Below are positions 2,678 to 15,911 of a DNA stretch of 64,000 bases, piece by piece (position 1 is the first letter of the stretch; every line of letters starts with the position of its first letter). A program made the position numbers and the translations under genes. The stretch is taken from the NCBI GenBank assembly GCA_934168305.1, contig CAKPNF010000002.1, positions 98,789 through 162,788 of the forward strand. Reading direction: 5' to 3'. This stretch comes from an uncultured Clostridia bacterium. GTDB taxonomy: Bacteria > Bacillota > Clostridia > TANB77 > CAG-508. Under the pieces are notes generated by a model. The model was given only the letters and a program-made list of their open reading frames with translations. It was not told the DNA's origin and searched no databases.

Positions 2678-3901
2678 TTAAGTCTGTGTTAATAAAAATC
2701 CAGAATCAATAACAGTATTAATATCAACATTAAAAGTTGAATTACTATAATTTTTTGCCCAATTATAGTTATTAAATTCTGTAGTTGTAGTAAAACTAGG
2801 AATTGCATATTCTCCGAACCCATTTATATCGCTTTTAAAAGTAGTAGAAGTTTTATACAGGTATTTAGTAATTTGACTTTCCAAATATTTATTGCATGAA
2901 TTTGAAATCAAATTCAAAACATCAATATTAAGATATTGAGAATCTTTTTTCATAGAATAAATCTTACCTGAAAATTCTAATTTTATATTTATATGTGGAG
3001 AACCATTAACAAAATCAACATTTATATTATGAGTACTATTTGGTGTTAAATAAACATCAATTTTTGAGTTTTCTTCTTGAGGGTTTGGAACAGATATAAG
3101 AAAATTGTTAACTTTTTTTCTTATACATAAAAAACAAATAGTTTCCATAGCATTTAATTCCCCAACAAGTTTATCATCTTTAAAAACGGAAAGACCAATA
3201 TTTTGAGAAGATCTATTACCAGCTATTGAATTTTCGTTTGTTTTTATAGTGGTGTCATCTGTCATTTGAGATTCATAAGAATTACTTGAGGAAGTTTTTA
3301 CTCCGCCCAATATTGCATAAGGAGAGTCATAGCTACAAACTAAAGCATTAAAAAAATCACCTATAGTTGCATTACAAGTATATCCTGTATATTCACTAGT
3401 ATTAGGGAATATATCATAATATTTTGGAATTAAACTTTCTAAACTTGGAATAGAATTTTTAATATAATATTTAGTGTTACATTTGCTAATAACGATATTT
3501 GCTGAAGGTCGTACCTGAACATCATTTATTAATGAATAAATCTCTTTAGATATTCCTTCTTTTGCTATTTCTTCTGAGAAAACAAATAATTTACAATGAG
3601 AAAGATTAACTTTTTTTCCTAGGTATGCATTCATTATATTTATTGCATTTGTTATGGAAGAACATACAACACTATTAAGTACAGGCTTTGCTTCAGAAGC
3701 ATTTTCACCACTTGGTGAAGTCGATAAAAATTCAAAAGTGATTTCTAATTTATCTGATGAAGATTTGTCAATGCCAAGTGCTACGGCAAATGCACAATTG
3801 CTTATATTAAGTGAATTATATGACGGAGAAAAACTAGAAATAAATATAATGATTAATACTATAATAAAAATTTTTTTAAATATATTAGTTATCTTTAACA
3901 C
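2678..3901 (-). CDS. Spore germination protein, Ger(x)C family lipoprotein
   Basis: A lipoprotein signal peptide with Cys (LNISNCAF) is present. The ~400 aa length and position (third gene of a gerA-type operon) fit. The start overlaps gerAB by 17 bp. Confidence 0.7.
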   Translation of the reverse strand: MLKITNIFKKIFIIVLIIIFISSFSPSYNSLNISNCAFAVALGIDKSSSDKLEITFEFLSTSPSGENASEAKPVLNSVVCSSITNAINIMNAYLGKKVNLSHCKLFVFSEEIAKEGISKEIYSLINDVQVRPSANIVISKCNTKYYIKNSIPSLESLIPKYYDIFPNTSEYTGYTCNATIGDFFNALVCSYDSPYAILGGVKTSSSNSYESQMTDDTTIKTNENSIAGNRSSQNIGLSVFKDDKLVGELNAMETICFLCIRKKVNNFLISVPNPQEENSKIDVYLTPNSTHNINVDFVNGSPHINIKLEFSGKIYSMKKDSQYLNIDVLNLISNSCNKYLESQITKYLYKTSTTFKSDINGFGEYAIPSFTTTTEFNNYNWAKNYSNSTFNVDINTVIDSGFLLTQT

Positions 3902-5009
3902 CTGCCCTTCTTTTTTTTAAATTAGCTATAGTTAATATTGATATACCTAAAATAAAACCTATAGCAATCTGAAAATATCTATAAATATGTGTTTCAAAAA
4001 AATTAGATATAGCATAATTTTTAGGAAGCAAAGCTATTCCAAAAATTAGCATTGCAAAAATATTCAGGGTAGGTTTTATATCACATAAATTAAACATTTT
4101 ATTGAAAATATGTGCAGAAAATTTGCAAATTAAACTTAAATAGCAACAAAAAGATATTATCCAAATTAATAGAAATATTGACTCGAATCTTTGAAAAAAT
4201 GAGCCAAATTCTATATGCCTAGCAGCTGAGAATAGTGGTATTATTTCATCTGTTGTTATAAAAAAAGAAAACATTAAAAGTAAAGTTGCTACACACAATA
4301 ATATAAATGCCCCTGTAAAAATAACGGATATAATAGCAATTTTTTTGAATTTTTTAGGTTCTTTTAGCATGGGCGGTAAAAAATATATATAACATACGCC
4401 ACCAAATGCACCTATATTTCTCAACCCTAAAATAAAAGTATTATAAGCACTATCACCACAAATAGGAAAAATTCGTTTAAAAGAAAAATTATCTATATTA
4501 CCACAAAATAATAATATTACACTTATTGATACAATAGGAAATACAATTGATGTTGCGTTTAAAGAGGAATTAAAACTTAAAGTATTTACTAAAGCAATAG
4601 AAATAATAAACATTAAAACAATAAATACATAATTTGTCAATGAATAATATACAACGCCTAATCCTTCACAGAAATTTCTTAACATTATACTTGAACTTAT
4701 AATGAAATAAGATATAAAAAAACTACCAATAATATTTTTAAAAATATTACCACCTAAAAATTTTGAAATGTCTAAAATATCTAAGCCAGGAAAATTTTTA
4801 AATAATTTACAAATTAACAAAACTAAAATTAAAACGATTGCTGTTACATAAATTATATTTAATAAGGTAGCAGATTTGATTTCATTTATAAAGGTTCTTG
4901 GTAAAGAACTTGTAATGTATGAGATTACAATAGAAAGTGTGAGTATAATAGTACTTATTGTACTGAGTTTTTCATGTTCCATGTTTGTTAATTCACCTCC
5001 TTTTTCCAT
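3885..5009 (-). CDS. Spore germination protein, GerAB/GerKB family (amino-acid-permease-like integral membrane protein)
   Basis: The protein has about 10 predicted TM helices and is ~370 aa. It lies between the GerAA and GerAC homologues. Its start overlaps the gerAA stop. Confidence 0.7.
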   Translation of the reverse strand: MEKGGELTNMEHEKLSTISTIILTLSIVISYITSSLPRTFINEIKSATLLNIIYVTAIVLILVLLICKLFKNFPGLDILDISKFLGGNIFKNIIGSFFISYFIISSSIMLRNFCEGLGVVYYSLTNYVFIVLMFIISIALVNTLSFNSSLNATSIVFPIVSISVILLFCGNIDNFSFKRIFPICGDSAYNTFILGLRNIGAFGGVCYIYFLPPMLKEPKKFKKIAIISVIFTGAFILLCVATLLLMFSFFITTDEIIPLFSAARHIEFGSFFQRFESIFLLIWIISFCCYLSLICKFSAHIFNKMFNLCDIKPTLNIFAMLIFGIALLPKNYAISNFFETHIYRYFQIAIGFILGISILTIANLKKRRAGVKDN

Positions 5010-6691
5010 TTCATAGAAATATTCTTTTGTTTCTTTTCCATTTTGGTAGCTAAATATGGAGCTCTATATTCTCTTTTCCATATAGGTGGAAGTAAAAGAC
5101 CGGTTCTCTTTAAATTTTTTATACTAGAATATGGAATAGAGTAAGATACTCCGAAAGATTCCATATTACATATTATCGATAGATAAACAAAAAGTCCGGT
5201 TCCAATTCCTAAAAATCCAGCAATATACCCAAGAAAAACAAATAAAAATCTAAATACTCTTAAATGAAAGCTAAAACCATAATCAGGAATAGCAAAGGAA
5301 CTTAATGCAGTTATTGCAACTATAATAATTAATATTGGACTAACAATACCAGCACCTACAGCAGCTTGACCTATAACTATTGCACCAACAATACCAATTG
5401 TTGAGCCTATAGCAGAAGGAACTCTAAGACTAGCTTCTCTTATAATTTCAAAGGATACTTCCATTATAAGTATTTCAAATATAATAGGAAAAGGTACATT
5501 TTCTCTTGCAGCCAAAATAGAATAAAGTAATTCTGTTGGTAATATTTCTATATGAAAGCTAGTTAATGCAACATATAAACATGGTAATAGAAGAGCAAAA
5601 AATGTACAAATTACTCTTAGGCATCTTAAAAAGTTTGCAAATATACTTTTTAAATTTCTATCTTCTGGAGAAGTTAAAAAATCAATCATAATTGCTGGAA
5701 GAATTAATGCAAAAGGGGAACCATTTATTAAAACAATAACTCTACCTTCTAAAAGATGCTGCGCTGCGTTGTCTGGTCTTTCAGTAGATAGAGCTTTTGG
5801 AAGTCCCAAAGCGCTATTATCACTTATTAATTGTTCCAATTGTCCTGCTGAAAGAACTGAATCTACATCCACATTATTTATTCGATATTTAACTTCTGCA
5901 ACCAAATCATCATTTGCAATATTTTGCATATAGCATACTGCACATTTCGTTTTTGTCAATTTTCCAACTTCTAAGTTTTCAACAACTAAGTTTTCGTTAT
6001 TTGTAAAGCGTCTTATTAAAGATGTATTTGTACGAATGTTTTCAACAAAAGCTTCGTGGGATCCTTTTATAACAATCTCATTCTCTGGTTTATCAATACT
6101 TCTTTGTTTGAAACCTTTTACATCAATATCAAAAGCAGAATCAAGAGTATCAATAAAAAGAGCACAATTACCAGAATTAACTCCTAAAAAAATATCGTTA
6201 AAAGAAGATTGAAGTTCTATATTATTTTGAGGAATCAAACAAGTTTGAACATAGTCAACTAGGTTAATTTTTTTTACTTTTCTAATTGTAACATTATTTG
6301 TGACTGATTCGGAAATGATATTTGATTGTTGATTTTTTAAAAAATTATTCTGATTTCTCATCATTAATGGTTTTAAAACAAAATCGTTTAATATTTGTGA
6401 ATCAACCATTCCATCAATATAAAGTAAAAATGCTTTAAACTGTTTTCCTTTTGCATTTAAAATAAATTCACGGGTTATAACATCACTGTTGATTAAAAGA
6501 TTATATTTAGTTTTTATATAATCTAAAGTTTTATTTATATCAGTAAAAACATTTTGAGATTTGTTAAAAGTAGTCTCATTATTTTGAGTTGAAGTATCTT
6601 TATTATTTATAGTACTATCTGGTAAAGTAAAATGATATGAATCATTTTGGGTATAACCAAAAGCTTTTGTTAGAATATCTTTTATTTTCAT
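4988..6691 (-). CDS. Spore germination protein, GerAA/GerKA family
   Basis: The hydrophilic N-domain is followed by a C-terminal multi-TM region with a PFPIIFEIL...GIVGAIVIGQAAV-type GerA signature. The likely start is the ATG at 6691 (MKIKDIL), which has a GAGGAG RBS. Confidence 0.8.
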   Translation of the reverse strand: MKIKDILTKAFGYTQNDSYHFTLPDSTINNKDTSTQNNETTFNKSQNVFTDINKTLDYIKTKYNLLINSDVITREFILNAKGKQFKAFLLYIDGMVDSQILNDFVLKPLMMRNQNNFLKNQQSNIISESVTNNVTIRKVKKINLVDYVQTCLIPQNNIELQSSFNDIFLGVNSGNCALFIDTLDSAFDIDVKGFKQRSIDKPENEIVIKGSHEAFVENIRTNTSLIRRFTNNENLVVENLEVGKLTKTKCAVCYMQNIANDDLVAEVKYRINNVDVDSVLSAGQLEQLISDNSALGLPKALSTERPDNAAQHLLEGRVIVLINGSPFALILPAIMIDFLTSPEDRNLKSIFANFLRCLRVICTFFALLLPCLYVALTSFHIEILPTELLYSILAARENVPFPIIFEILIMEVSFEIIREASLRVPSAIGSTIGIVGAIVIGQAAVGAGIVSPILIIIVAITALSSFAIPDYGFSFHLRVFRFLFVFLGYIAGFLGIGTGLFVYLSIICNMESFGVSYSIPYSSIKNLKRTGLLLPPIWKREYRAPYLATKMEKKQKNISMKWKKEVN

Positions 6692-6794
6692 AGTTGGTCT
6701 CCTCACTGAACTGTAAATATTAAATCTAGTATTGGCAAAAAAAATGAAAATATACTAGTTTTTAACAATTAAAAATGTTATAATAAAGTTATAT

Positions 6795-7934
6795 ATGCAC
6801 GAAAGAGAGTGGATGAAAATGAAAACAAAAATAAAATCATTCATAATGACAACAGTAACAATATTAATAATATCAATTTTAGGCATTTTAGGAATATTAA
6901 TATATAATGAAATAACAAAAAGTAATATAGTAGGTGAAGTTCAGGACTTTGTATCTAATATAACAATATCAAGTGGAGAAATAGATGGAAATATAAAAAA
7001 TCAAGAGATAATAAAAGACACAAAAGAAACACTATTATATAACGAAGAAGATATAAATGTTGTAGAAGGCAATAAAGTAGAAAAATATTTTTATAATCAA
7101 TTAGATGAATATTCTAAAATAATATACAAAGAAATAGAGAAAAACAAAGATAATATGAAAACAGGGGTATATCAAATAAATCTTGGAACTGGATTTTCAT
7201 CACTACTTTCTCAAGATAATGGAGAAAAAGCACTAGGGGATTGTTATCAATCTGCAATTGAAGCATTTTCATATGATAATCCTGATGTATTTTATATAGA
7301 GTTTTCAAAATTATATTTAAATATTGAAACTACAACAAAAGGAAATAAAAAAACATATAAAGTGTTTATTAATTCAGGAGAAAATGAAAATTACTTAACA
7401 AGTGGATTAACATCTCAAAAGATAAAAGAAGAATTAAATGAAATAGAAAAGATAAAATTATATTTTACAAACAATAAAAAAAGTAATACATATGAAAACG
7501 TAAAAATGGTACATGATTATTTAGTAGATAGTATAGAATATGATCAAACAATATCTCAAGCCAATATATATGATATATATGGTGCGCTAATAAATAAAAA
7601 AAGCGTTTGTGAAGGATATGCAAAAGCTTTTAAATATCTAATGGATTCAATAAATATACCATGTGTGACAGTATCTGGAAAAGGAACAAATTCAGAAGGA
7701 AATACAGAAAATCATGCATGGAATTATGTACGAATAAATGGAATGTGGTATGCCGTAGATTGCACATGGGATGACCCTATTTTAATAGGATCAGGATATT
7801 TAAGTAACTCATTAAAATATAAATATTTTCTTAAAGGTGAAGATGAATTTAATAAATCACATACACCAAATGGACAGTTTACAGAAAGTGGAAAAATATT
7901 TGAATATCCAAATTTAAGTAAAGAAAATTATTAA
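6795..7934 (+). CDS. Transglutaminase-like (Cys-His-Asp) domain membrane protein
   Basis: An N-terminal TM segment is present. The core is CEGYAKAFKYLMDSINIPC...HAWNYV...DCTWD, the transglutaminase-like cysteine protease core. The start may instead be 6813 or 6819. Confidence 0.7.
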   Translation: MHEREWMKMKTKIKSFIMTTVTILIISILGILGILIYNEITKSNIVGEVQDFVSNITISSGEIDGNIKNQEIIKDTKETLLYNEEDINVVEGNKVEKYFYNQLDEYSKIIYKEIEKNKDNMKTGVYQINLGTGFSSLLSQDNGEKALGDCYQSAIEAFSYDNPDVFYIEFSKLYLNIETTTKGNKKTYKVFINSGENENYLTSGLTSQKIKEELNEIEKIKLYFTNNKKSNTYENVKMVHDYLVDSIEYDQTISQANIYDIYGALINKKSVCEGYAKAFKYLMDSINIPCVTVSGKGTNSEGNTENHAWNYVRINGMWYAVDCTWDDPILIGSGYLSNSLKYKYFLKGEDEFNKSHTPNGQFTESGKIFEYPNLSKENY

Positions 7935-7962
7935 ATAGATAATGAAAAAGGAGAAATAAAAG

Positions 7963-8862
7963 ATGTCATTAAAAGATAAAATACCAAATAAAATGCCTAG
8001 TTTACCAAATTTTTCAAAAATTGGAACAAGTAAAATAAAAGTATATGCATTTGTAGGACCATCAGGGACAGGAAAAAGTTATAGAGCACAAATGGTAGCA
8101 AGTGAAAAAAACATAAAATTTATAATAGATGATGGTCTTCTTATAATGGACAATAAAGTAATTGCAGGTGAGTCAGCTAAAAAAGCTCCAACAAAAATAG
8201 AAACAGTAAAACATGCATTATTTTATAAAGAAGAAGAAAAACAAGAAATAATAAAAGCATTAAAAAAATATAAACCAGAGAGTATATTAATATTAGGAAC
8301 ATCTGATGGAATGGTACAAAAAATAGCAGCTAATTTAGGATTACCAGAAATATCTGATACAACTTATATATCAGATGTAGCAACACAAGGAGAAATGGAG
8401 ACGGCAAGAAGAATAAGGGTAACAGAAGGGAAACATGTAATACCAGTACCAACATTTGAAATAAAAAAAGATTTTTCTGGATATTTATTAGATCCCCTTC
8501 AAATATTCAAAACAAAAGGAAGAGGAAATCAACCATATATATCAGAGAAATCAATTATAAGACCAACATTTAGTTATTTAGGAAATTTTACAATTTCAGA
8601 TACGGTATTTAGACAAATATTAGAATATTTAGCATCAAAAACATTAGGAATATATAAAGTTCAAAAAATAAGAGTAGACAATTTTGGTGAAGGTGTAAAA
8701 ATACATATGGAAGTTACCATAGTATATGGTTTCAATTTGATTGATGGAATTAATGAGTTTAAAAACAAGGCTAAAAAAGAAATAGAAAAATTAACTGCTA
8801 TGAATGTTGAAGAATTTGAAGTTGTAATTAAGAATATATATGTTCCAGAGAAGGGAGAATAA
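7963..8862 (+). CDS. P-loop NTPase domain fused to an Asp23/Gls24-family domain (hypothetical)
   Basis: A Walker A motif GPSGTGKS is at the N-terminus. The C-terminus (FTISDTVFRQILEYLAS...GVKIHMEVTIVYGFNLIDGINEFKNKAKKEIEKLTAMNVEEFEVVIKNIYV) matches the Asp23 / alkaline-shock-protein pattern. Confidence 0.6.
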   Translation: MSLKDKIPNKMPSLPNFSKIGTSKIKVYAFVGPSGTGKSYRAQMVASEKNIKFIIDDGLLIMDNKVIAGESAKKAPTKIETVKHALFYKEEEKQEIIKALKKYKPESILILGTSDGMVQKIAANLGLPEISDTTYISDVATQGEMETARRIRVTEGKHVIPVPTFEIKKDFSGYLLDPLQIFKTKGRGNQPYISEKSIIRPTFSYLGNFTISDTVFRQILEYLASKTLGIYKVQKIRVDNFGEGVKIHMEVTIVYGFNLIDGINEFKNKAKKEIEKLTAMNVEEFEVVIKNIYVPEKGE

Positions 8863-8863
8863 G

Positions 8864-9460
8864 ATGAAAGATATTTTAAAATCAATAGGTAGAGGGATTG
8901 TAAAAGGTGCAATTTGGATTTATTGTAAAATAGTATATAGATTTGAGGTAATAGGAAAAGAAAATATACCAAAAGAGGGTCCTATAATTATATGTGGAAA
9001 TCACAGAAGTTTTTTAGATCCACCATTAATGGAAGTAACAACAGGTAGATATACTAGATTTTTAGCAAAAGAAGAATTAACAAAAAATAAATTTTTAGCG
9101 TTTTTAGGTTATGTATTTGATGCAATATTAGTGAAGAGAGATTCAAAAGAGGTTATTGCACTTAAGGAATCTTTGAAAACTTTAAAGAATGGGGATTGTT
9201 TAGCTTTATTTCCAGAAGGAACAAGAAATGGCTTAGCAAAAGGTGAAAAAGTCAAAGATGGTGCAGCATTTTTTGCTGTAAGAAGCGGTGCACCTGTTGT
9301 ACCTTGTGGTATTAAAGGCGGAGAAAAAGGAAAAAGAAAAGTTACTATTACTTATGGAAAACCTTTAGATTTTAGTGAGTATAAAGGTAGCAAAGATAAA
9401 GAAGTTCTTGATAAGGTTACTGAGGAAATTATGAACAATATTATTGAACTTACAAAATAA
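8864..9460 (+). CDS. plsC: 1-acyl-sn-glycerol-3-phosphate acyltransferase
   Basis: The NHRSFLDPP (HxxxxD) and FPEGTR acyltransferase motifs are present. The ATG at 8864 follows an AGGGAG RBS. Confidence 0.8.
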   Translation: MKDILKSIGRGIVKGAIWIYCKIVYRFEVIGKENIPKEGPIIICGNHRSFLDPPLMEVTTGRYTRFLAKEELTKNKFLAFLGYVFDAILVKRDSKEVIALKESLKTLKNGDCLALFPEGTRNGLAKGEKVKDGAAFFAVRSGAPVVPCGIKGGEKGKRKVTITYGKPLDFSEYKGSKDKEVLDKVTEEIMNNIIELTK

Positions 9461-9512
9461 AATTGTATTTTTTAATAGAAAATTAGTGGAGATAATTTTT
9501 TTTAAAAGGTAT

Positions 9513-9547
9513 AAATAGTAAGTTGTTGTTGAGGTTAGATTTCTAAT
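9513..9547 (+). repeat. Direct repeat copy 1 (AAATAGTAAGTTGTTGTTGAGGTTAGATTT) upstream of the GNAT gene
   Basis: About 30 of 34 positions are identical to the copy at 10095-10129. The two copies bracket the GNAT ORF. Confidence 0.5.
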
Positions 9548-9572
9548 TATATAAAGAAAGGTTGAAAAATAA

Positions 9573-10052
9573 GTGATTGAAATAGTAGAATATAAGAATG
9601 AATATGCAAAAGATTTGTCAGAAATAATACTAGATAATATGTATAAAATTAATATTAAAGAGCATGGAAAAGATATAATAGATAGAATTTCAAAGTATTT
9701 TACGGAAGATGAAATAAAGAAAAATTTTCCACAAAGAACTAAATGCTTAGTAGCATTAAAAAATGAGAAGGTTGTTGGTACAGCAAGTATTGATCGATAT
9801 AAAGGTGATAAAACAGGAAAAAAGTACATTGTATTAACAGTATTTGTAAAAATAAAAAATCATCGACAAGGAATAGGAAAAGAATTAATTGAAAATATAG
9901 AAAAAATTGCAGTAAATGTTGGGTGTAAGGAGCTAGTAATACCTTCTTCTGTTTACGCTTGTGAATTTTACCGTAAATTTGGATTTGATTATCTAGATGG
10001 AAAGAAAATTCAAAATGAAGATAAGGAATATATTTTAACAAAAAAATATTAA
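9573..10052 (+). CDS. GNAT family N-acetyltransferase
   Basis: Motif A (HRQGIGKELIENIE) and a GNAT fold pattern are present. The start is a GTG. Confidence 0.75.
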   Translation: MIEIVEYKNEYAKDLSEIILDNMYKINIKEHGKDIIDRISKYFTEDEIKKNFPQRTKCLVALKNEKVVGTASIDRYKGDKTGKKYIVLTVFVKIKNHRQGIGKELIENIEKIAVNVGCKELVIPSSVYACEFYRKFGFDYLDGKKIQNEDKEYILTKKY

Positions 10053-10094
10053 TTGATTGCTAGAGGCAAATTACAATTTAGTAATTAGTTAGAA

Positions 10095-10129
10095 AAATAG
10101 TAAGTTGTCGCTGAGGTTGAATTTTGAAA
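10095..10129 (+). repeat. Direct repeat copy 2 (AAATAGTAAGTTGTCGCTGAGGTTGAATTT) downstream of the GNAT gene
   Basis: See copy 1. It lies between the GNAT gene and the recombinase gene. Confidence 0.5.
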
Positions 10130-10266
10130 TTTAAATAAAAAACTATAAATTTTTGAGGTGGGTATATAAAGTATGCTCATCTTTTATTATGTCAATTAAA
10201 TATTGTATAATATAGGTAGAGTTCTATATATTGTAAATTATGGAAAAATGTAAGGAGGTAATTGTC

Positions 10267-11262
10267 ATGAGAGAATTGTTTGTTGAAAAAGTAATTGATT
10301 GGGCAGGAGAATTTTTAGACAATAACCAAAGAATAAAATTAAAAGAGATACTTACAGAAATATGTTTAAATTATCACATTGAAATATTAGAACAAAACCA
10401 AAAACAAGAAATACAAAAGAACAATGAAGAAATATTAAATAAATTTATATCATCAAAAGAAATTGAAGGCTGTTCAGTTAGAACATTAAAATATTATAAA
10501 GATAATATAACAAAAATGTTAGATACTGTAAATCTTCCAATAAATGAAATTACAATGGAAACATTAAGAAATTATTTATCAAATTATAAAAACAATTCAA
10601 CTGCGGGTATGGTAACAATAGATAATATAAGAAGAACATTATCAAGTTTTTTTGCTTGGTTGGAAAACGAAGACTATATTGTAAAAAGTCCTGTTAGAAG
10701 AATCCATAAAGTAAAAGCAGTGAAAAAGGTAAAAGAAACGTTAACAGATGAAAATTTAGAAAAATTAAGAGATACTTGCTCAAATGTAAGAGATTTAGCA
10801 ATATTAGAACTATTAATTTCAACTGGTATGAGAGTCGGAGAACTTACTAGATTAAATATATCAGATATGAATTTTCAAGAAAGAAGTTGTATTGTTATAG
10901 GAAAAGGGAATAGTGAAAGAGAAGTTTATTTTAGTGCAAAGAGTAAAATGTATATAAAGAAATATTTGGAAACAAGAACAGATAATAATGAAGCATTATT
11001 TGTTTCACTTATAAAACCCTATAATCGATTAGGAATATCAGGGATTGAAATTGCTATTAGAAACTTAGGAAAACAAGCAAATATAAACAAGGTACATCCA
11101 CATAAATTTAGAAGAACAATGGCAACGATGGCTATTGATAAAGGCATGCCAATAGAACAAGTTCAAAAATTATTGGGACACATAAAAATAGATACTACAA
11201 TGGAATATGCAATGGTAAATCAAAATAATGTAAAAAATTCACATAGAAAATATATTAATTAA
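10267..11262 (+). CDS. Tyrosine-type site-specific recombinase/integrase (XerD-like with an N-terminal extension)
   Basis: The C-terminal catalytic region (HPHKFRRTMATMAIDKGMPIEQVQKLLGHIKIDTTMEYAMV) carries the R..H..R..Y signature. A SAM-like N-domain is present. A strong RBS AAGGAGG sits 8 nt upstream of the ATG. Confidence 0.85.
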   Translation: MRELFVEKVIDWAGEFLDNNQRIKLKEILTEICLNYHIEILEQNQKQEIQKNNEEILNKFISSKEIEGCSVRTLKYYKDNITKMLDTVNLPINEITMETLRNYLSNYKNNSTAGMVTIDNIRRTLSSFFAWLENEDYIVKSPVRRIHKVKAVKKVKETLTDENLEKLRDTCSNVRDLAILELLISTGMRVGELTRLNISDMNFQERSCIVIGKGNSEREVYFSAKSKMYIKKYLETRTDNNEALFVSLIKPYNRLGISGIEIAIRNLGKQANINKVHPHKFRRTMATMAIDKGMPIEQVQKLLGHIKIDTTMEYAMVNQNNVKNSHRKYIN

Positions 11263-11607
11263 ATTGGATAAATAAAAAGTTGAATGTATAAAGCAAAAAG
11301 TCAGGATTAAATGATAAAAAATTCAAAAATTATATTAAAACCTAGTAATATTAACGGTTACATGAAATTTAAAACATCAAAAACAGTTAAGGCCGTTGAT
11401 ATTGCTAGTTTTAGATATTTAATTAATATTTTATTGGATTTTTAAATTCTGAAATAGTTAATTTGGCTGAATATAATTTTATATATTTTTAATATACAAA
11501 AAATTAAATTTTTGTAATAAAAGATTTTTGTAATCCAATTGCATAAAGAATTACAACTTTTAAAAATAAAATTTCATGATTTAGTAATGGCAAAAAGTCA
11601 GAAAATA

Positions 11608-11636
11608 TAGACAATTCAATGTTTTTGTAATATAAT
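11608..11636 (+). promoter_or_regulatory. Sigma-A-like promoter TAGACA-17-TATAAT for the five-gene module
   Basis: The -35 element TAGACA is at 11608-11613 and the -10 element TATAAT at 11631-11636, with a 17 nt spacer. It lies about 30 bp upstream of the Nudix gene. Confidence 0.5.
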
Positions 11637-11663
11637 GATTGTATCAAAAAAGGAGGCATTTAA

Positions 11664-12206
11664 ATGGAAGAGAAGTTAGACGTATTAAATGAACGTGGGG
11701 AGTTTACAGGAAAGGTAGCTACAAGAGAAGAATGTCACAGGGAAGGATTGTGGCACAGAGCTGTATACGGATTCATAATAGATAAAAATTCAAATGTATT
11801 ATTACAAAAAAGAAGTCAAAATAAAAAACTATGGCCGAACAAATGGGATGTAACTGTTGGTGGACATGTGGATTCAGGTGAATTTGGAAGACAAACAATA
11901 ATCAGAGAGTGTAAAGAAGAACTTGGAATTGATGTAAAAGAAAACGAAATAAAATATCTAATATCTTCTACATCTGTGTATGAAAAGAATAACTATTCAA
12001 ATAAGCACTATGATGAATGTTATTTGATTTTGAAAGATGTTGACATTACAAAGTTAAAACTTCAAAAAGAGGAGGTATCTGATGTTCAGTATTTTTCGAA
12101 AGAAGAATTATTAGAAAGAATAGAAAATAATTTTGATGGATTAACAGAAAAAACTGGTTCATGGCATTTTTTAAAGAAAATATTAGAAGATGGTAGAATA
12201 AACTAA
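11664..12206 (+). CDS. Nudix hydrolase
   Basis: A complete Nudix box GGHVDSGEFGRQTIIRECKEELGI (Gx5Ex7REUxEExGU) is present. Confidence 0.85.
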   Translation: MEEKLDVLNERGEFTGKVATREECHREGLWHRAVYGFIIDKNSNVLLQKRSQNKKLWPNKWDVTVGGHVDSGEFGRQTIIRECKEELGIDVKENEIKYLISSTSVYEKNNYSNKHYDECYLILKDVDITKLKLQKEEVSDVQYFSKEELLERIENNFDGLTEKTGSWHFLKKILEDGRIN

Positions 12207-12242
12207 AATAGAGATTACAAATATAACATGGAGGTAAAATGT

Positions 12243-12893
12243 ATGTTGAGCTTACACTATGATTTAGATAATGAAAAAGTAAAATATTTAATTACTACAG
12301 ATGACAAATTAGGTAAATTAATTAAATATATCAATAAAACTGAATTGATAATTGAAGAAGATGGCTTTAAATGTATTGTTAAGTATATAATAGGACAGCA
12401 AATTAGTGATAAAGCTCGTGAAACTATTTGGCAACGTGTATGTGCAATTTTGAAAAATATAACACCTGAAAATATACTAGCGATAAATGATAATGAATTA
12501 AGAAAAGTAGGATTATCAGAACGTAAAATTAATTACATAAAAATATTAGCATCAGCTGTTATCAGTGAAGATATAAATTTTTATGATTTTAAGGAACTCA
12601 CCAATGAAGAAATTATAAAAAAGTTAACTGCATTAAAAGGTATTGGTCAATGGACTGCTGAAATGTATTTGATTTTTTCATTAGGAAGAGAAAATGTACT
12701 TTCAAAAGGAGATGGAACAATTAGACGTACAATACAGTGGATGTACGATTTGGAAAAATTACCATCTTCGGAAATATTGCTTAAATATTTTAGCAGTTGG
12801 ACTCAGTATGCAACAATTGTATCATCATATCTTTGGAAATCAATTGAATTAGGATTGGTGCAAAGACCTTTTAATGAGATTATATCAAATTAG
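12243..12893 (+). CDS. HhH-GPD family DNA glycosylase (AlkA / 3-methyladenine DNA glycosylase II-like)
   Basis: The helix-hairpin-helix LKGIGQWTAEMYLIFSLGRENVLSKGDGTIRR includes the catalytic Asp. The likely start is the ATG at 12243, after a GGAGG RBS. Confidence 0.75.
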   Translation: MLSLHYDLDNEKVKYLITTDDKLGKLIKYINKTELIIEEDGFKCIVKYIIGQQISDKARETIWQRVCAILKNITPENILAINDNELRKVGLSERKINYIKILASAVISEDINFYDFKELTNEEIIKKLTALKGIGQWTAEMYLIFSLGRENVLSKGDGTIRRTIQWMYDLEKLPSSEILLKYFSSWTQYATIVSSYLWKSIELGLVQRPFNEIISN

Positions 12894-12905
12894 GAGGCTA
12901 AAAGT

Positions 12906-14156
12906 ATGGATAATGGAAAATTATATTGGATGAATTATTCTATTAATATTGCTAATGGTTCAAAAGATAATAATTTGCGTGTAGGTGCTGTTTTAGTTAC
13001 AGAAGATAATAAGCTAGTTTGTTCTGCTTATACAGACGAATGTTCTGGTTTATCGTGGTATGAAATATTATTGTCTAAAATAGAAAAAATAAATGTAAAT
13101 AAGGCTTACTATTTATTTTTAACAGTAAATACACTATTTTCGGAATCAGAATTTGACTTAAATAAACTAATGGAAAAAATAGCCATTGAAGAAATATACA
13201 TAGGTGTTCCAGACCCTAATTTGGCAGATTATTTATCGAATGATCCGATTGGTACATTCAGGAATATTTATCGTTATTCAGACAATTTGAAAAGAATGAT
13301 ATTGCAGCAAAATCTTAATTATTACAGAAATGTTAAACAAAATATAAAATCTAGTCCATATTATTCTGCTAAGAGAATAAGCAATATAGTTATGGAAAAA
13401 CTAGAAGAAAAAGGTATTTTTATTTCTAAAGAAGAATTGCAATCAAATAAACAAATTGAAAAATTAATTCAATTGATTGTTGAAAAGTATAAGTTTAATA
13501 TAGATGATGCTAGTAAGCTAGTAAATTTGGTAATGTCTGAAGCATTTGATGAGAAATATGCAACATATAATTATTCAGATGATGCTCGTTCACTTAGTGT
13601 GGATTGGAAGAATAATTTTTTAAAGATATATAACAAACTGTTATTATCTTCATTGGAAAATAAAGATATATTAGATGTTGGTGTAGGAAGTGGTAATGAA
13701 GCAATAGCATTATTTTCTAATTGCCCTAATATTACATTTGTTGATATTGCACCAAATGGTTTGAAAAAGATAAAAAAACAAATTCCGAAATCAAATATTG
13801 TTGTATCAAGGGCTGAAAAGCTTGTTACATTAATAAATAATAGCTATGATATTTATATATCATTAAGAACATATAATTCGTCCTTTTTCAATGTAAAACA
13901 AGCAATTTCAGAAGCACATAGAGTTTTAAAAAAAGATGGTATTATAATTATTTCTATTGCAAATGGTTTTTTAAGCCCAGAGAATCAATATATAATTCCG
14001 GGCTTACTTATTCCAGGAACAGAGTTTGTTGATATTTATAGAGGGTTTGATATTATAAAGAAATTGTCGACAGAACTTTGTAATAATGGTTTTGAAGATA
14101 TTAAATTTTTTCCAACAAAGGTAGAACTTTTTTTAACGGCTAAGGCAAAAAAATGA
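12906..14156 (+). CDS. Fusion of a cytidine/dCMP-deaminase-fold-like N-domain (zinc ligands not conserved) to a class I SAM-dependent methyltransferase
   Basis: The N-domain reads VGAVLVTEDNKLVCSAYTDEC...YLFLTVNTL...IEEIYIGVPDPN. It parallels the CDA fold but lacks the H-A-E and PCxxC motifs. The C-domain carries MTase motif I (LDVGVGSGNEAIALF) and a post-II motif (VLKKDGIIIIS). Confidence 0.6.
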   Translation: MDNGKLYWMNYSINIANGSKDNNLRVGAVLVTEDNKLVCSAYTDECSGLSWYEILLSKIEKINVNKAYYLFLTVNTLFSESEFDLNKLMEKIAIEEIYIGVPDPNLADYLSNDPIGTFRNIYRYSDNLKRMILQQNLNYYRNVKQNIKSSPYYSAKRISNIVMEKLEEKGIFISKEELQSNKQIEKLIQLIVEKYKFNIDDASKLVNLVMSEAFDEKYATYNYSDDARSLSVDWKNNFLKIYNKLLLSSLENKDILDVGVGSGNEAIALFSNCPNITFVDIAPNGLKKIKKQIPKSNIVVSRAEKLVTLINNSYDIYISLRTYNSSFFNVKQAISEAHRVLKKDGIIIISIANGFLSPENQYIIPGLLIPGTEFVDIYRGFDIIKKLSTELCNNGFEDIKFFPTKVELFLTAKAKK

Positions 14157-14181
14157 TGTGAATTTTTAAAGGAGGTACTAA

Positions 14182-14937
14182 ATGATTGAACCAAAAACAT
14201 TTGCTCAGAAAGTAATAGAATTTAATAAAGAATTATCCAAAATATCAATGGAATTACCGGATGGTTTTAAAATTATAAATCCATTTAATGGAAGTCAAAA
14301 AGAAATAGTAAATGAAATTTCAACAGTATTCTACAAAAGGTTTTATAATGACTGTAATAAGCGTCATATAATATTAGGAAGTTCTCCAGCACGTAGAGGA
14401 ACAGCTATTACAGGTGTACCATTTGAGGATGCGGCACATCTTCAAAAAGAAACGGGTATTCTGATTGATAAGTTTTATGTTAACAAGTCATCGTCAGGCT
14501 TTTTATATGATGTAATTGAAAAATATGGTGGCTGCAAAAAGTTTTATTCTGATTTTTATATGAATTTTGTCTGTCCTGTTGGTATAGTTAGAACTAATTC
14601 AAAAGGAAATGAAGTTAACTGTAATTATTATGATAGTAAAAAATTACAAGAAACATTGTATTCACTTATTGTTAATTCAATACAGGCACAAATTGATTTA
14701 GGAATTGATACTTCCATATGTTATTGTATCGGAAGTGGAGAAAATTATACTTTTTTATCTAAGATAAATGAAAAACACAAATTTTTTGAAGAAATTATAC
14801 CATTAGAACATCCACGATTTATAATGCAATATAATTCAAAACATAAAGATGAATTTCTTGAAAAGTATTTGACAGCTTTAAAACAAAATCATAATAAAGA
14901 AAAGGAGAATAATATAGAATATGATAGAGAAAGATAG
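14182..14937 (+). CDS. Uracil-DNA glycosylase superfamily-like protein (divergent)
   Basis: A motif-A-like GSSPARRGTAITGVPFED (GxxPxxxGxxxxGxPF) and a motif-B-like EHPRF (HP) sit near the C-terminus. Several Cys residues are present. The family assignment needs an HMM search. Confidence 0.5.
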   Translation: MIEPKTFAQKVIEFNKELSKISMELPDGFKIINPFNGSQKEIVNEISTVFYKRFYNDCNKRHIILGSSPARRGTAITGVPFEDAAHLQKETGILIDKFYVNKSSSGFLYDVIEKYGGCKKFYSDFYMNFVCPVGIVRTNSKGNEVNCNYYDSKKLQETLYSLIVNSIQAQIDLGIDTSICYCIGSGENYTFLSKINEKHKFFEEIIPLEHPRFIMQYNSKHKDEFLEKYLTALKQNHNKEKENNIEYDRER

Positions 14938-15703
14938 TAAAATATTAGTTCATTTTGATACTAACGATACAAGTATATATCAGCTAAAAGGAGATAGTAT
15001 ATCATTAATAAAAAAAGAAAGAGTTTTTTTTAATGAAACACTAATACATGACGAGTTATTCAAAAAGATTGATTATGTTATTGAAAAACTAAGAATGATT
15101 GTAGAAAAAGTTGATAATGAAAGTGTAAGATTATATGCTACTGGAGTCTTTCAGGAATTTTCAGAAGAAGAACAAACACAATTAATAATACATGTTTTTG
15201 TAAATTCAGGCTTATGTTTTAATATAGTAAAGCCTGATTTAGAACAATTTTACATTGAAAAAGGTTTGGAGAAAAGTAACGAAAAAAATATTATTAATGG
15301 AATTGTTCAACAGGAATTTAGAAAGGTTGTTATATGTGGTAGTTTTCAACAGAATATGCAAGAAATAGGGAACATCATAGGAATCTTAAAAAAACGAAAT
15401 ATTCAGATATTAAGTCCTTGGACAATGGATATTGTTCCTGAGTCCTTAGGTACTGACTTTATTCTTCTAGAAGGTCAAGAGTTAGTAAATGAAAGGGATG
15501 CATGGAGACATAAATATGATCATATGAATAAATTTAAAAAAGCAGATGCTATTATAGTATGTAATCCTGAAGGAAGAATAGGAAAAGGGACTATGTTTGA
15601 ATTTGGTTTCATGATAGCGTATTCAAAAAGAATTATTTTTACAAATGAACCGAAAGACTTATCAATTCCATTTCCATATGAGATAGGATTAAATTTTATG
15701 TAA
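14921..15703 (+). CDS. Unknown N-domain fused to a nucleoside 2-deoxyribosyltransferase / DNPH1(Rcl)-like domain
   Basis: The C-terminal half reads KVVICGSF...ADAIIVCNPEGRIGKGTMFEFGFMIAYSKRIIF. It resembles the NDT/DNPH1 pattern (YFCGSI...ADaviAxLDg..D.GTa.EiGyA.algKpv). The ORF overlaps the upstream gene by 17 bp. Confidence 0.5.
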   Translation: MIEKDSKILVHFDTNDTSIYQLKGDSISLIKKERVFFNETLIHDELFKKIDYVIEKLRMIVEKVDNESVRLYATGVFQEFSEEEQTQLIIHVFVNSGLCFNIVKPDLEQFYIEKGLEKSNEKNIINGIVQQEFRKVVICGSFQQNMQEIGNIIGILKKRNIQILSPWTMDIVPESLGTDFILLEGQELVNERDAWRHKYDHMNKFKKADAIIVCNPEGRIGKGTMFEFGFMIAYSKRIIFTNEPKDLSIPFPYEIGLNFM

Positions 15704-15883
15704 TATTTTATTGAAATAGAATAATTTGAAATTTGCAAAAAGAACAGCTTATATAAGAATTTTTTAGATGTTCTTTTATTAAAAATATAAGTTATGCATC
15801 TTAGCAACAAATTACAATTTATCGTTGAAAATAAATTAGTAACAATTAATTATACTTTACATAAAATAAAGTCAAAAATTCAT

Positions 15884-15911
15884 TGACAAACTTTGAATTT
15901 AGTAGTATAAT
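15884..15911 (+). promoter_or_regulatory. Sigma-A promoter TTGACA-16-TATAAT upstream of typA
   Basis: A TTGACA is at 15884-15889 and a TATAAT at 15906-15911. Confidence 0.5.

Follow-up and report, generated by a model that had tools for sequence, protein, structure and literature searches.

A zinc-less deaminase-fold domain fused to a methyltransferase belongs to a mobile three-gene module with SMUG2-like and NDT-like partners

The stretch of DNA analyzed here (the window: 64 kb from an uncultured Clostridia bacterium, assembly GCA_934168305.1, contig CAKPNF010000002.1) carries a gene for a 416-residue protein in which a domain with the cytidine deaminase (CDA) fold, devoid of all zinc ligands, is joined through a helical linker to a class I S-adenosylmethionine (SAM)-dependent methyltransferase (MTase). 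The N-terminal domain (N-domain) is a genuine pseudo-deaminase, and its active, RibD-like ancestor was already joined to the MTase. The most informative fact about the gene, which is absent from an earlier reading of the same DNA made without database searches (the sequence-only reading), is its pairing with two downstream genes, one encoding a SMUG2-like protein of the uracil-DNA glycosylase (UDG) superfamily and the other a nucleoside 2-deoxyribosyltransferase (NDT)-like protein. The gene and its parts (aa, amino acids) are as follows, with the evidence for each part in brackets.

12906..14156, + strand: MTase-fusion open reading frame, ATG start, 416 aa
12906..13310, + strand: CDA-fold pseudo-deaminase domain, RibD-type, zinc ligands absent, aa 1-135 (AlphaFold2 (AF2), Foldseek, hhalign, ligand columns)
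13311..13640, + strand: helical linker, aa 136-245, with a UbiE/Coq5-like pre-motif (SEAFDEKYxxYxYxxDxRSxxxxW) at its end (AF2 helices 137-245)
13641..14156, + strand: class I SAM-dependent MTase core, aa 246-416 plus stop (Methyltransf_11 E 1.4e-14, motif I, Foldseek)

The strings quoted in the sequence-only reading were all located in the translation (VGAVLV at aa 26-31, YLFLTVNTL at aa 69-77, IEEIYIGVPDPN at aa 94-105, and motif I, LDVGVGSGNEAIALF, at aa 256-270). Public annotation overlooks the pseudo-deaminase domain: RefSeq labels proteins of the zinc-less clade 'class I SAM-dependent methyltransferase' only, and the N-domain is not among the precomputed Pfam assignments, which leave the first 250 residues without any Pfam family. 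The family is well conserved at a length of about 415 aa, and with the family alignment as input AF2 predicts, with confidence, a fixed arrangement of domains for the full-length protein (mean predicted local distance difference test, pLDDT, 88; predicted TM score, pTM, 0.82).

When the N-domain was modeled alone (aa 1-140, with its own alignment) the pLDDT was 93.7. The model has the three-layer α/β/α architecture of the CDA-fold superfamily with its elements in the order of that fold, α1-β1-β2-α2-β3-α3-β4-(α4)-β5, and DSSP assigns in the AF2 models helix 3-16, strands 27-31 and 37-42, helix 51-62, strand 66-75, helix 84-91, strand 93-102, helix 114-117, strand 121-123, and helix 126-135. In a Foldseek search of the PDB with this model, the top 50 matches are without exception RibD-type bifunctional enzymes or free-standing CDA-fold deaminases (RibD-type proteins, TadA, guanosine deaminase, dCMP and dCMP/dCTP deaminases, and ADAT2/3), with query-based TM scores (TMq) of 0.50-0.75 over ~136-162 columns, all being at least 0.61 except for six human dCMP deaminase chains. 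The best match is RibD 3zpc (E 1.4e-6, TMq 0.71, 143 columns), and five of the 50 chains (8dq9/8dqb/8dqc) bear the label 3-dehydroquinate dehydratase I but give E 6.3e-16 with the RibD-type profile. With the full-length model as the query, MTase matches dominate and B. subtilis RibG appears at rank 47.

Detection from sequence alone was weak or partial by every route taken (Pfam, NCBIfam, phmmer, PDB profile, and hhalign against TadA and RibD sequences). Pfam PF00383 scores 16.2-18.3 bits on the N-domain against a gathering cutoff of 25 and covers aa 6-48 only, phmmer and profile searches of the PDB find TadA and dCMP deaminase at E values of about 0.5-1, and hhalign with E. coli TadA aligns aa 5-38 only, at E 6.8e-5. 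Such values would be compatible with motifs that match by chance and an unrelated N-terminal fold, an explanation so improbable that we set it aside: it is ruled out by the Foldseek top 50, by the architecture and MTase motifs shared with a sister clade of active enzymes, and by the hhalign match of the N-domain profile to that clade (97.9% probability, E 4e-13, 129 columns). The sister-clade profile in turn matches RibD structures at E 3.7e-21, followed by TadA, cytosine deaminase, and dCMP deaminase. The Foldseek result and this transitive chain of profiles, from the N-domain through the sister clade to RibD, therefore identify a pseudo-deaminase of RibD-like ancestry, and the likeness is far beyond chance. 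The sequence-only reading had placed a CDA/RibD deaminase fold at the N-terminus and had named two outcomes that would speak against it, the lack of a CDA-fold match and an unrelated fold; neither came true, and the AF2, Foldseek, and hhalign results bear the fold out.

An exhaustive search of 1.84 billion cluster representatives with the N-domain profile gave 64 matches, nearly all of them proteins of about 415 aa with the same architecture or fragments thereof. Among the weakest are two full-length proteins (P0177 and P0184) and a fragment (P0178) with the deaminase-linker-MTase layout in which the motifs H[AC]E, LEPC-x8-PC, and LDPNP are intact. The active sister clade to which these belong comprises at least 318 sequence clusters; its deaminase domain is recognized by Pfam (precomputed PF00383/dCMP_cyt_deam_1 matches), and JGI labels already name this active form as a RibD-like pyrimidine deaminase/SAM-dependent methyltransferase fusion. 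A further match, to a 1047-aa protein of 13 near-identical repeats (P0163; E 1e-17 over 47 residues), was rejected as spurious and repeat-driven, and it is a caution for profile searches that use the N-domain. The architecture had been called unusual, and it is indeed uncommon, but it is not unique, as the size of the sister clade and the occurrence of the zinc-less form in at least 80 species-level genomes make clear.

Deaminases of the RibD-like clade carry an insert within CxxC and have a lengthened segment connecting strand 4 with helix 4 (Iyer et al., 2011; PMC3239186). A further mark is the DPNP motif, of which D103-P104 survive here, and the zinc-less N-domain keeps the marks of the clade in part. 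With RibD/RibG (3zpc, 2hxv, 2b3z/4g3m, 2o7p), its best structural matches, the N-domain shares the fold and element order, the 'IG.xDP' motif containing D103-P104, the insert between the former Cys positions, and the extended β4-α4 segment. It differs from RibD in the absence of the His, Glu, and Cys ligands, in an insert that is two residues shorter, and in N105, which is not conserved (A in 42/76), and where RibD has a C-terminal reductase the zinc-less protein has the helical linker and SAM MTase instead. The active fusions (P0184, P0177, and P0410) have the same length, three-part layout, and MTase motifs as the zinc-less proteins and are also cargo of mobile elements, but they retain H[AC]E and EPC...C (113/113) and are solitary, without SMUG2-like or NDT-like neighbors.

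Ligand positions were compared in an alignment of 189 sequences, comprising 113 active-type and 76 zinc-less family proteins. All of the active-type sister sequences (113/113) have the His, the Glu, the Glu-Pro-Cys, and the second Cys, and the zinc-less family has the following residues in their place.

Active-clade His: S50, next to W51 (74/76)
Active-clade catalytic Glu: a variable residue
Active-clade Glu-Pro-Cys: N75-T76-L77
Active-clade second Cys: L85

The register shifts by one residue between aligners, such that the His falls on S50 or W51, the Glu on position 52 or 53, the first Cys on L77 or a deletion, and the second Cys on D84 or L85; in no alignment register is a zinc ligand kept in any of the 76 zinc-less proteins. 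Neither of the PF00383 marks, [H/C]-x-E and P-C-x(2-9)-C, is present in the family, and the only Cys or His of the N-domain conserved in more than 50% of the sequences is C39 (80%), away from the ligand positions. Because the His, the Glu, and both Cys are lost, the N-domain is predicted to be unable to bind the catalytic zinc or to deaminate. The loss of the zinc and catalytic residues, which had been proposed from the one sequence, holds across the whole family in the ligand columns. The two strings then given as the replacements, 'WYE' and 'NTLFSES', mark the right places, but the Glu of WYE is not conserved and aligns with the catalytic Glu in only 2/3 alignments.

The residues common to both clades are M9, V26-G27, E45, K58, T73, G100, D103-P104, and R123-[FY]-P125, and among these the alignment indicates that E45, K58, T73, G100, D103-P104, and R123 are non-metal pocket residues kept from the active clade. 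T73, G100, and D103 are the only polar-type positions counted as conserved at ≥98%. Identity between Firmicutes and Streptomyces is 41% in the N-domain, 36% in the linker, and 54% in the MTase, and the N-domain appears from its conservation to be under purifying selection, retained rather than decaying. Because the non-metal pocket residues are kept and the substrate of RibD is a free pyrimidine nucleotide, we propose that the dead domain may serve as a reader of a base or nucleotide, in line with the sequence-only reading, in which it would present substrate to the fused MTase. It could instead be a ligand-free structural relic, acting as an oligomerization or docking scaffold that dimerizes the MTase or holds the SMUG2-like partner. 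Inactive CDA-fold partner subunits are documented, such as Tad3/ADAT3, which supports Tad2/ADAT2, and the second domains of plant Des/Cda (PMC3239186), the hydrophobic residues W51, L77, and L85 appear to fill the core where the metal site used to be, and the small number of invariant polar residues in the N-domain is what a scaffold would show. We regard this as improbable, as the polar residues that survive (E45, K58, T73, D103-P104, and R123) are those common with the active clade around the substrate site, and a scaffolding role would be compatible with ligand binding while leaving the module unexplained.

Catalytically dead proteins of the CDA fold are known, and include Tad3/ADAT3, inactive plant RibD-like proteins, the second domains of plant Des/Cda, and some ADARs such as ADAD2 (PMC3239186). 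Like the zinc-less protein, the Tad3/ADAT3-type proteins keep the CDA fold and have non-catalytic roles. In contrast, they either retain zinc ligands, some or all of them, or work with an active paralogue in RNA editing, whereas here all of the ligands are gone, the fused partner is an MTase, and the genomic context is one of enzymes that act on N-glycosidic bonds.

The fusion to an intact SAM MTase, also claimed in the sequence-only reading, agrees with the Methyltransf_11 score (aa 256-349, 54.9 bits against a cutoff of 21.2) and with the conserved motifs. G259, G263, and E265 of motif I and D280 are conserved at ≥98% across the zinc-less family and G261 at ≥90%, the AF2 model has the Rossmann strand order in this part, and the linker region has its own invariant residues (Y153, K217, Y218, Y221, D226, R228, and W234). 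The nearest NCBIfam families are UbiE, MenG, and BioC, all far below their cutoffs, the best being UbiE/MenG (TIGR01934, 37.8 bits against 158), a matter of likeness and not membership; the Pfam Ubie_methyltran match (PF01209), which aligns from aa 212, is marginal (22.3 bits against a cutoff of 20.1). Foldseek neighbors of the full model include Coq5 (4obw), MM_2633, PsoF, CurJ, NovO, CouO, and toxoflavin N-MTase. UbiE/Coq5/MenG enzymes are thus the best NCBIfam and Pfam relatives, Coq5 is among the top Foldseek matches, and a similar pre-motif precedes motif I, but the zinc-less MTase differs from them in its scores, in its unique SLRTYNSSFF and ANGF motifs, and in lacking a quinone-pathway context. 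Marks of DNA MTases, motif IV [DNS]PP[YFWH] and PCQ/ENV, occur in 0/76 family members, and Pfam N6_N4_Mtase matches at E 0.079 only. From these features the MTase is predicted to be an intact class I enzyme of the small-molecule (UbiE/Coq5-like) type. In PADLOC the protein matches mad2 (E 1.6e-13), with aa 163-360 aligned to profile positions 210-405 of 492; an identity with MADS/mad2 was rejected, as the match is to the generic Rossmann core only, no other MADS genes lie nearby, and motif IV is absent.

The two clades have in common the pocket motifs AFDxKY..Y..D.R...W, SLRTY[NQ]SS.F, ANGF, and PGL.iP..VD, and the strongly conserved positions that they share number 39 in the MTase part and 13 in the N-domain. 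The shared pocket motifs and positions suggest that the methyl acceptor would be similar in the zinc-less and active clades.

In the window the pseudo-deaminase-MTase gene is the third of five in a tight operon, in which the genes overlap or are separated by gaps of 12-25 nucleotides (nt). Its other members and a promoter-like site are as follows.

14182..14937, + strand: SMUG2-like UDG-superfamily protein, 251 aa, near-obligate partner (PDB 5h0j/5h0k, E 4.2e-64)
14921..15703, + strand: NDT-like protein, 260 aa, near-obligate partner, overlapping the SMUG2-like gene by 17 nt
11664..12206, + strand: Nudix hydrolase, DR0079/YfcD-like, 180 aa, accessory (Pfam NUDIX E 2e-19)
12228..12893, + strand: Mag/AlkA-type 3-methyladenine DNA glycosylase, HhH-GPD, 221 aa, accessory (Pfam HhH-GPD E 4.5e-16)
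11608..11636, + strand: promoter-like site TAGACA-17-TATAAT upstream of the five genes, a candidate by its match to the consensus (11/12), in a region not enriched for such sites

The SMUG2-like protein aligns over aa 6-238 with 5h0j, and about half of the aligned residues are identical; 5h0j/5h0k carry the PDB label 'uncharacterized protein' and are reportedly SMUG2 of Pedobacter heparinus (Pang et al., 2017). The partner resembles this structure over its full length and has in common with it the HPR of motif 2, the family as a whole keeping HPR...QYN with 55% identity between Firmicutes and Streptomyces, but it differs in its constant pairing within the three-gene unit (the triad) and in motif 1, which is GINPGRFG in 5h0j and GSSPARRG, without variation, in 76 SMUG2-like sequences. 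The Asn at this position, the residue used by SMUG/MUG-type enzymes, is Ser in every member, and the substitution suggests a changed chemistry or specificity of the SMUG2-like protein. The SMUG2 family is reported to act on U derivatives, hypoxanthine, and xanthine (PMC8307549).

The NDT-like protein consists of an N-domain without assignment and a C-domain resembling nucleoside 2-deoxyribosyltransferases, and the family keeps CGSFQ, RDxWxHK, and an invariant GxGTxFExG that lies in the C-domain. Against Pfam Nuc_deoxyrib_tr (PF05014) the protein in the window scores E 7.7e-6 and 26.5 bits, below the cutoff of 28.8, and a Streptomyces orthologue 30.7 bits. The family profile aligns, weakly (E 1.3), to the FExGFM motif of PDB 1s2d, which presumably carries the catalytic Glu of that transferase. 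The two accessory proteins have firm PDB matches, the Nudix hydrolase to DR0079 (1q27, E 6.5e-12) and YfcD (E 4.9e-11) and the Mag/AlkA-type glycosylase to 2h56 (E 1.8e-36) and Mag1 (3s6i, E 1.6e-27). In PADLOC the Nudix protein matches PDC-S07 (E 4.5e-12), the SMUG2-like protein gave only GajB at E 0.0033, which is not significant, and the NDT-like protein gave no match. An Rfam search of the 400-nt gap upstream of the operon found no riboswitch or other RNA element.

To place the gene in other genomes, loci were scanned with one genome per species, giving 80 loci of which 76 have enough downstream sequence. In 74/76 of these the SMUG2-like gene and then the NDT-like gene lie directly downstream on the same strand. 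The hosts are Clostridia, Bacilli/Erysipelotrichia, Alphaproteobacteria (including Caedibacter and metagenome-assembled genomes of Rickettsiales), and, among the Actinobacteria, about 45 Streptomyces, Kitasatospora, Saccharothrix, and Yinghuangia. From gut Clostridia to Streptomyces the module retains 41-60% identity. One 655-aa protein (P0156, L089 102-2069), from a single metagenomic Logan contig that could be an assembly artefact, joins the pseudo-deaminase-MTase in frame to the SMUG2-like protein, with a 255-aa gene downstream; such a fusion suggests physical association, as the scaffold explanation would also have it. Upstream of the gene, Firmicutes and Alphaproteobacteria have a Mag/AlkA gene directly adjacent in 22 loci and a Nudix gene in 11. 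A thymidylate-kinase-like gene lies near three of the zinc-less members (L001, L019, and L040).

SMUG2-like and NDT-like partners were also expected beside genes of the active sister clade, but none were found in the loci examined (L091, from Prosthecobacter fusiformis, as is P0410; L092; and L093). The active fusions there are either the solitary cargo of elements resembling integrative and conjugative elements, with an integrase, a relaxase, a TrwB/type IV secretion system coupling protein, a primase, and RadC as neighbors, or lie beside a thymidylate kinase gene, which adjoins the fusion in L092. As the active sister genes are without the partners and the zinc-less genes have them, loss of the zinc site and gain of the two partners go together.

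Several loci show the setting of the cassette in more detail. In L004-L006 (~3836-11744) it consists of an HTH protein, HhH-GPD, pseudo-deaminase-MTase, SMUG2-like, and NDT-like genes flanked by large serine recombinases; it apparently lies within an AhpC/peroxiredoxin gene, of which a 51-62-aa piece is found upstream (L005 and L006) and a 160-165-aa piece downstream (all three). A Clostridia contig (L001 5340-8862) has the HhH-GPD gene called as two pieces of 143 and 80 aa and the SMUG2-like gene called at 147 aa even though tblastn aligns 238 aa, and this cassette, which is followed by thymidylate-kinase-like, NTP_transf_5, AMP-binding, and PP-binding genes, may be decaying. Elsewhere the flanks consist of serine recombinases, insertion sequence (IS) elements, and unrelated housekeeping genes, and large Streptomyces plasmids carry six copies, one of which adjoins type I-E cas genes. 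A tyrosine integrase accompanies the cassette in L007, L008, and L010, as it does in the window, where the mobility features are as follows.

10067..10080, + strand: left 14-nt direct repeat CAAATTACAATTTA, att-like, between a GNAT gene and the integrase
10240..11262, + strand: tyrosine recombinase/integrase, 340 aa (Phage_integrase E 2e-37, Phage_int_SAM_4 E 6e-12)
15808..15821, + strand: right 14-nt direct repeat CAAATTACAATTTA, att-like, upstream of typA/bipA

The repeat has exactly two perfect copies in the window, and its origin by chance was rejected, as 0/100 shuffles gave any match and 0 were expected. The two copies probably mark the ends, att-like in character, of an integrative islet of 5.75 kb (10067-15821) inserted between the GNAT gene and typA/bipA. 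A recombinase, flanking repeats, and the same cargo with other recombinases and flanks elsewhere are all found, and the suggestion that the gene sits in an island is upheld by the integrase and by a repeat that starts at 10067 and 15808 only. In addition, a 47-nt sequence occurs at 9513-9559 and at 10095-10141, the two copies being 77% identical and flanking the GNAT gene, with the second just inside the left repeat, and a perfect sigma-70 consensus promoter, TTGACA-17-TATAAT, lies at 15883-15911, upstream of typA/bipA and just outside the right end of the islet. A phage origin of the gene was rejected after a tblastn search of 50,697 phage records gave zero matches. Taken over all of the loci, the three-gene module is near-obligate, horizontally mobile, and cross-phylum.

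A distribution of this kind could indicate an epigenetic or anti-invader module, comparable to base-excision restriction-modification (R-M) or the surveillance of modified bases. The MTase would then act on DNA or on a DNA-derived nucleotide signal, with the pseudo-deaminase flipping or reading the base to mark self, and the SMUG2-like (plus Mag/AlkA) and NDT-like proteins would either attack foreign DNA that is unmarked or hypermodified or exhaust the supply of nucleotides or NAD. The module is patchy across phyla and is found in integrase and serine-recombinase islets, with IS elements, on giant Streptomyces plasmids, and in one case beside type I-E cas genes, and relatives of the N-domain that are of the TadA type, found among the PDB matches, bind bases flipped out of nucleic acids. 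The pairing of an MTase with a glycosylase follows the logic of R.PabI-type base-excision R-M, in which a DNA glycosylase gene is co-mobile with a methyltransferase gene (PMC10273834), and NDT-like domains are known as defense effectors, in retron defense (PMC13276650); the PADLOC matches to mad2 and PDC-S07 can be added. However, R.PabI-type systems have a different glycosylase fold (here the UDG superfamily and HhH-GPD), and the DNA-MTase motifs are missing from the zinc-less family, in which the nearest relatives of the MTase are small-molecule C-, O-, and N-MTases. The mad2 match does not extend beyond the Rossmann core and lacks other MADS genes around it, PADLOC gives nothing significant for the SMUG2-like and NDT-like proteins, the phage records gave no match, and the constant coupling to polyketide synthase (PKS)-like genes in Streptomyces, described next, would be unusual for defense. 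We consider an anti-invader function doubtful on this balance.

Actinobacterial triads have, at a fixed distance downstream, genes for an acyl carrier protein (ACP)-adenylating enzyme (an ACP-AMP-ligase; 41 of ~45 loci), a ketosynthase (KS; 37), and a chain-length factor (CLF)-like KS (36), and in the two loci that were read that far an ACP-thioesterase (TE) ends the operon (L090 and L094). The resulting seven-gene operon spans 3956-12012 of L090 (S. formicae) and 14085-22029 of L094 (an S. anulatus plasmid), and ~40 further actinobacterial loci are similar, with an upstream flank that varies. An APH-like kinase gene lies near the operon in both L090 and L094, and Nudix genes in L094 only.

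These operons raise the possibility of a biosynthetic module, in which the NDT-like protein (with the UDG-fold protein) would release or exchange a base that the pseudo-deaminase-MTase then methylates to give a metabolite or antimetabolite, and Actinobacteria would go on to acylate or extend the methylated base by means of the ACP-adenylase, KS, CLF, and TE. Precedent exists in bacimethrin, where the N-glycosidase BcmB is followed by the methyltransferase BcmC, and MilB and BlsM follow similar logic. The MTase is of the small-molecule type, with the natural-product enzymes PsoF, CurJ, NovO, CouO, and toxoflavin N-MTase among its Foldseek neighbors, RibD, as the ancestor of the N-domain, acts on a free pyrimidine nucleotide, and thymidylate-kinase-like genes lie near L001, L019, L040, and L092. 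On the other hand, the triads of Firmicutes and Alphaproteobacteria are without PKS-like partners and have Mag/AlkA and Nudix genes instead, the closest characterized relative of the SMUG2-like partner is a DNA glycosylase, no transporter or regulator is consistently linked, and an islet of 5.75 kb is small for a unit containing both production and resistance. We therefore think it unlikely that biosynthesis is the general role of the module.

Our preferred reading, to which we assign a probability of roughly 0.45, is that the dead deaminase domain recognizes a base or nucleotide for the MTase within a module that handles one non-canonical base. In the mechanism that we tentatively put forward, the pseudo-deaminase domain would still bind a (phospho)ribosyl-base or free-base ligand and would thereby give the MTase its specificity. 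The glycosylases would excise the non-canonical base from DNA, the Nudix and NDT-like enzymes would cleave the corresponding nucleotide, and the pseudo-deaminase-MTase would methylate the released base or nucleotide with SAM, so that it could be neither salvaged nor reincorporated. Candidates for such a base would be a deaminated or 5-substituted pyrimidine or an alkylated base. The natural fusion in P0156, the tight operon, and the Mag/AlkA and Nudix neighbors were counted in favor of a common module, and we propose that it handles a non-canonical base because the accessory genes in Firmicutes are of the repair and sanitation type and because of two analogies, one of them bacimethrin. The other is the human set DCTD, DNPH1, and SMUG1, which reportedly handle 5-hydroxymethyl-dU (Fugger et al., 2021). 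These represent the same three folds (a CDA-fold dCMP deaminase, an NDT-fold dNMP N-glycosidase, and a SMUG-type enzyme) acting on one aberrant pyrimidine, and the likeness is one of analogy only; in the present case the deaminase has lost its active site and is joined to an MTase, and the genes are in a mobile bacterial operon.

Several points weigh against the proposal that a dead deaminase reads a non-canonical base for the MTase. Binding of a base or nucleotide by the N-domain is deduced from conservation and ancestry. Lacking the motif-1 Asn (GSSPARRG in place of GINPGRFG), the SMUG2-like partner may be no conventional DNA glycosylase, and the score of the NDT-like protein in Pfam is sub-threshold. 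The ~41 actinobacterial loci with ACP-adenylase, KS, CLF-like, and ACP-thioesterase genes fit biosynthesis better than sanitation, and the patchy spread linked to mobile elements, including the one case beside cas genes, is also typical of defense systems, in which NDT-like domains are known as effectors.

A bolder formulation is that the triad constitutes a new mobile system for the surveillance of modified bases, in which the dead deaminase would read the base, the MTase would mark or neutralize it, and two enzymes acting on N-glycosidic bonds would clear it from both DNA and the pool of nucleotides. Such a system could serve either as a base-excision 'R-M' or anti-phage device or as a transferable resistance against a genotoxic or antimetabolite product, and in the case of resistance the Streptomyces operon with ACP-adenylase, KS, CLF, and TE would be the producer-side version. 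We offer this as speculation and consider it unlikely. The chance that the module is a new system is moderate. A literature search that covered the triad, SMUG2 operons, deaminase-methylase fusions, and clusters of UDG with PKS genes found no description of the triad; dead deaminase folds (PMC3239186) and the active fusion (JGI labels) are already known.

If the module is merely a repair cassette of a housekeeping-like nature, the result is a modest improvement in annotation. If it sanitizes, restricts, or builds a modified base, it would represent a new route of modified-base metabolism, and its glycosylases and MTase might have novel specificities of use in base-editing or epigenetic tools. 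The reuse of dead-enzyme domains as ligand readers recurs in nucleic-acid biology, as in ADAT3 and ADAD, and the zinc-less family provides a clean bacterial pseudo-deaminase with a living active sister clade, in which the transition from catalyst to reader can be traced residue by residue.

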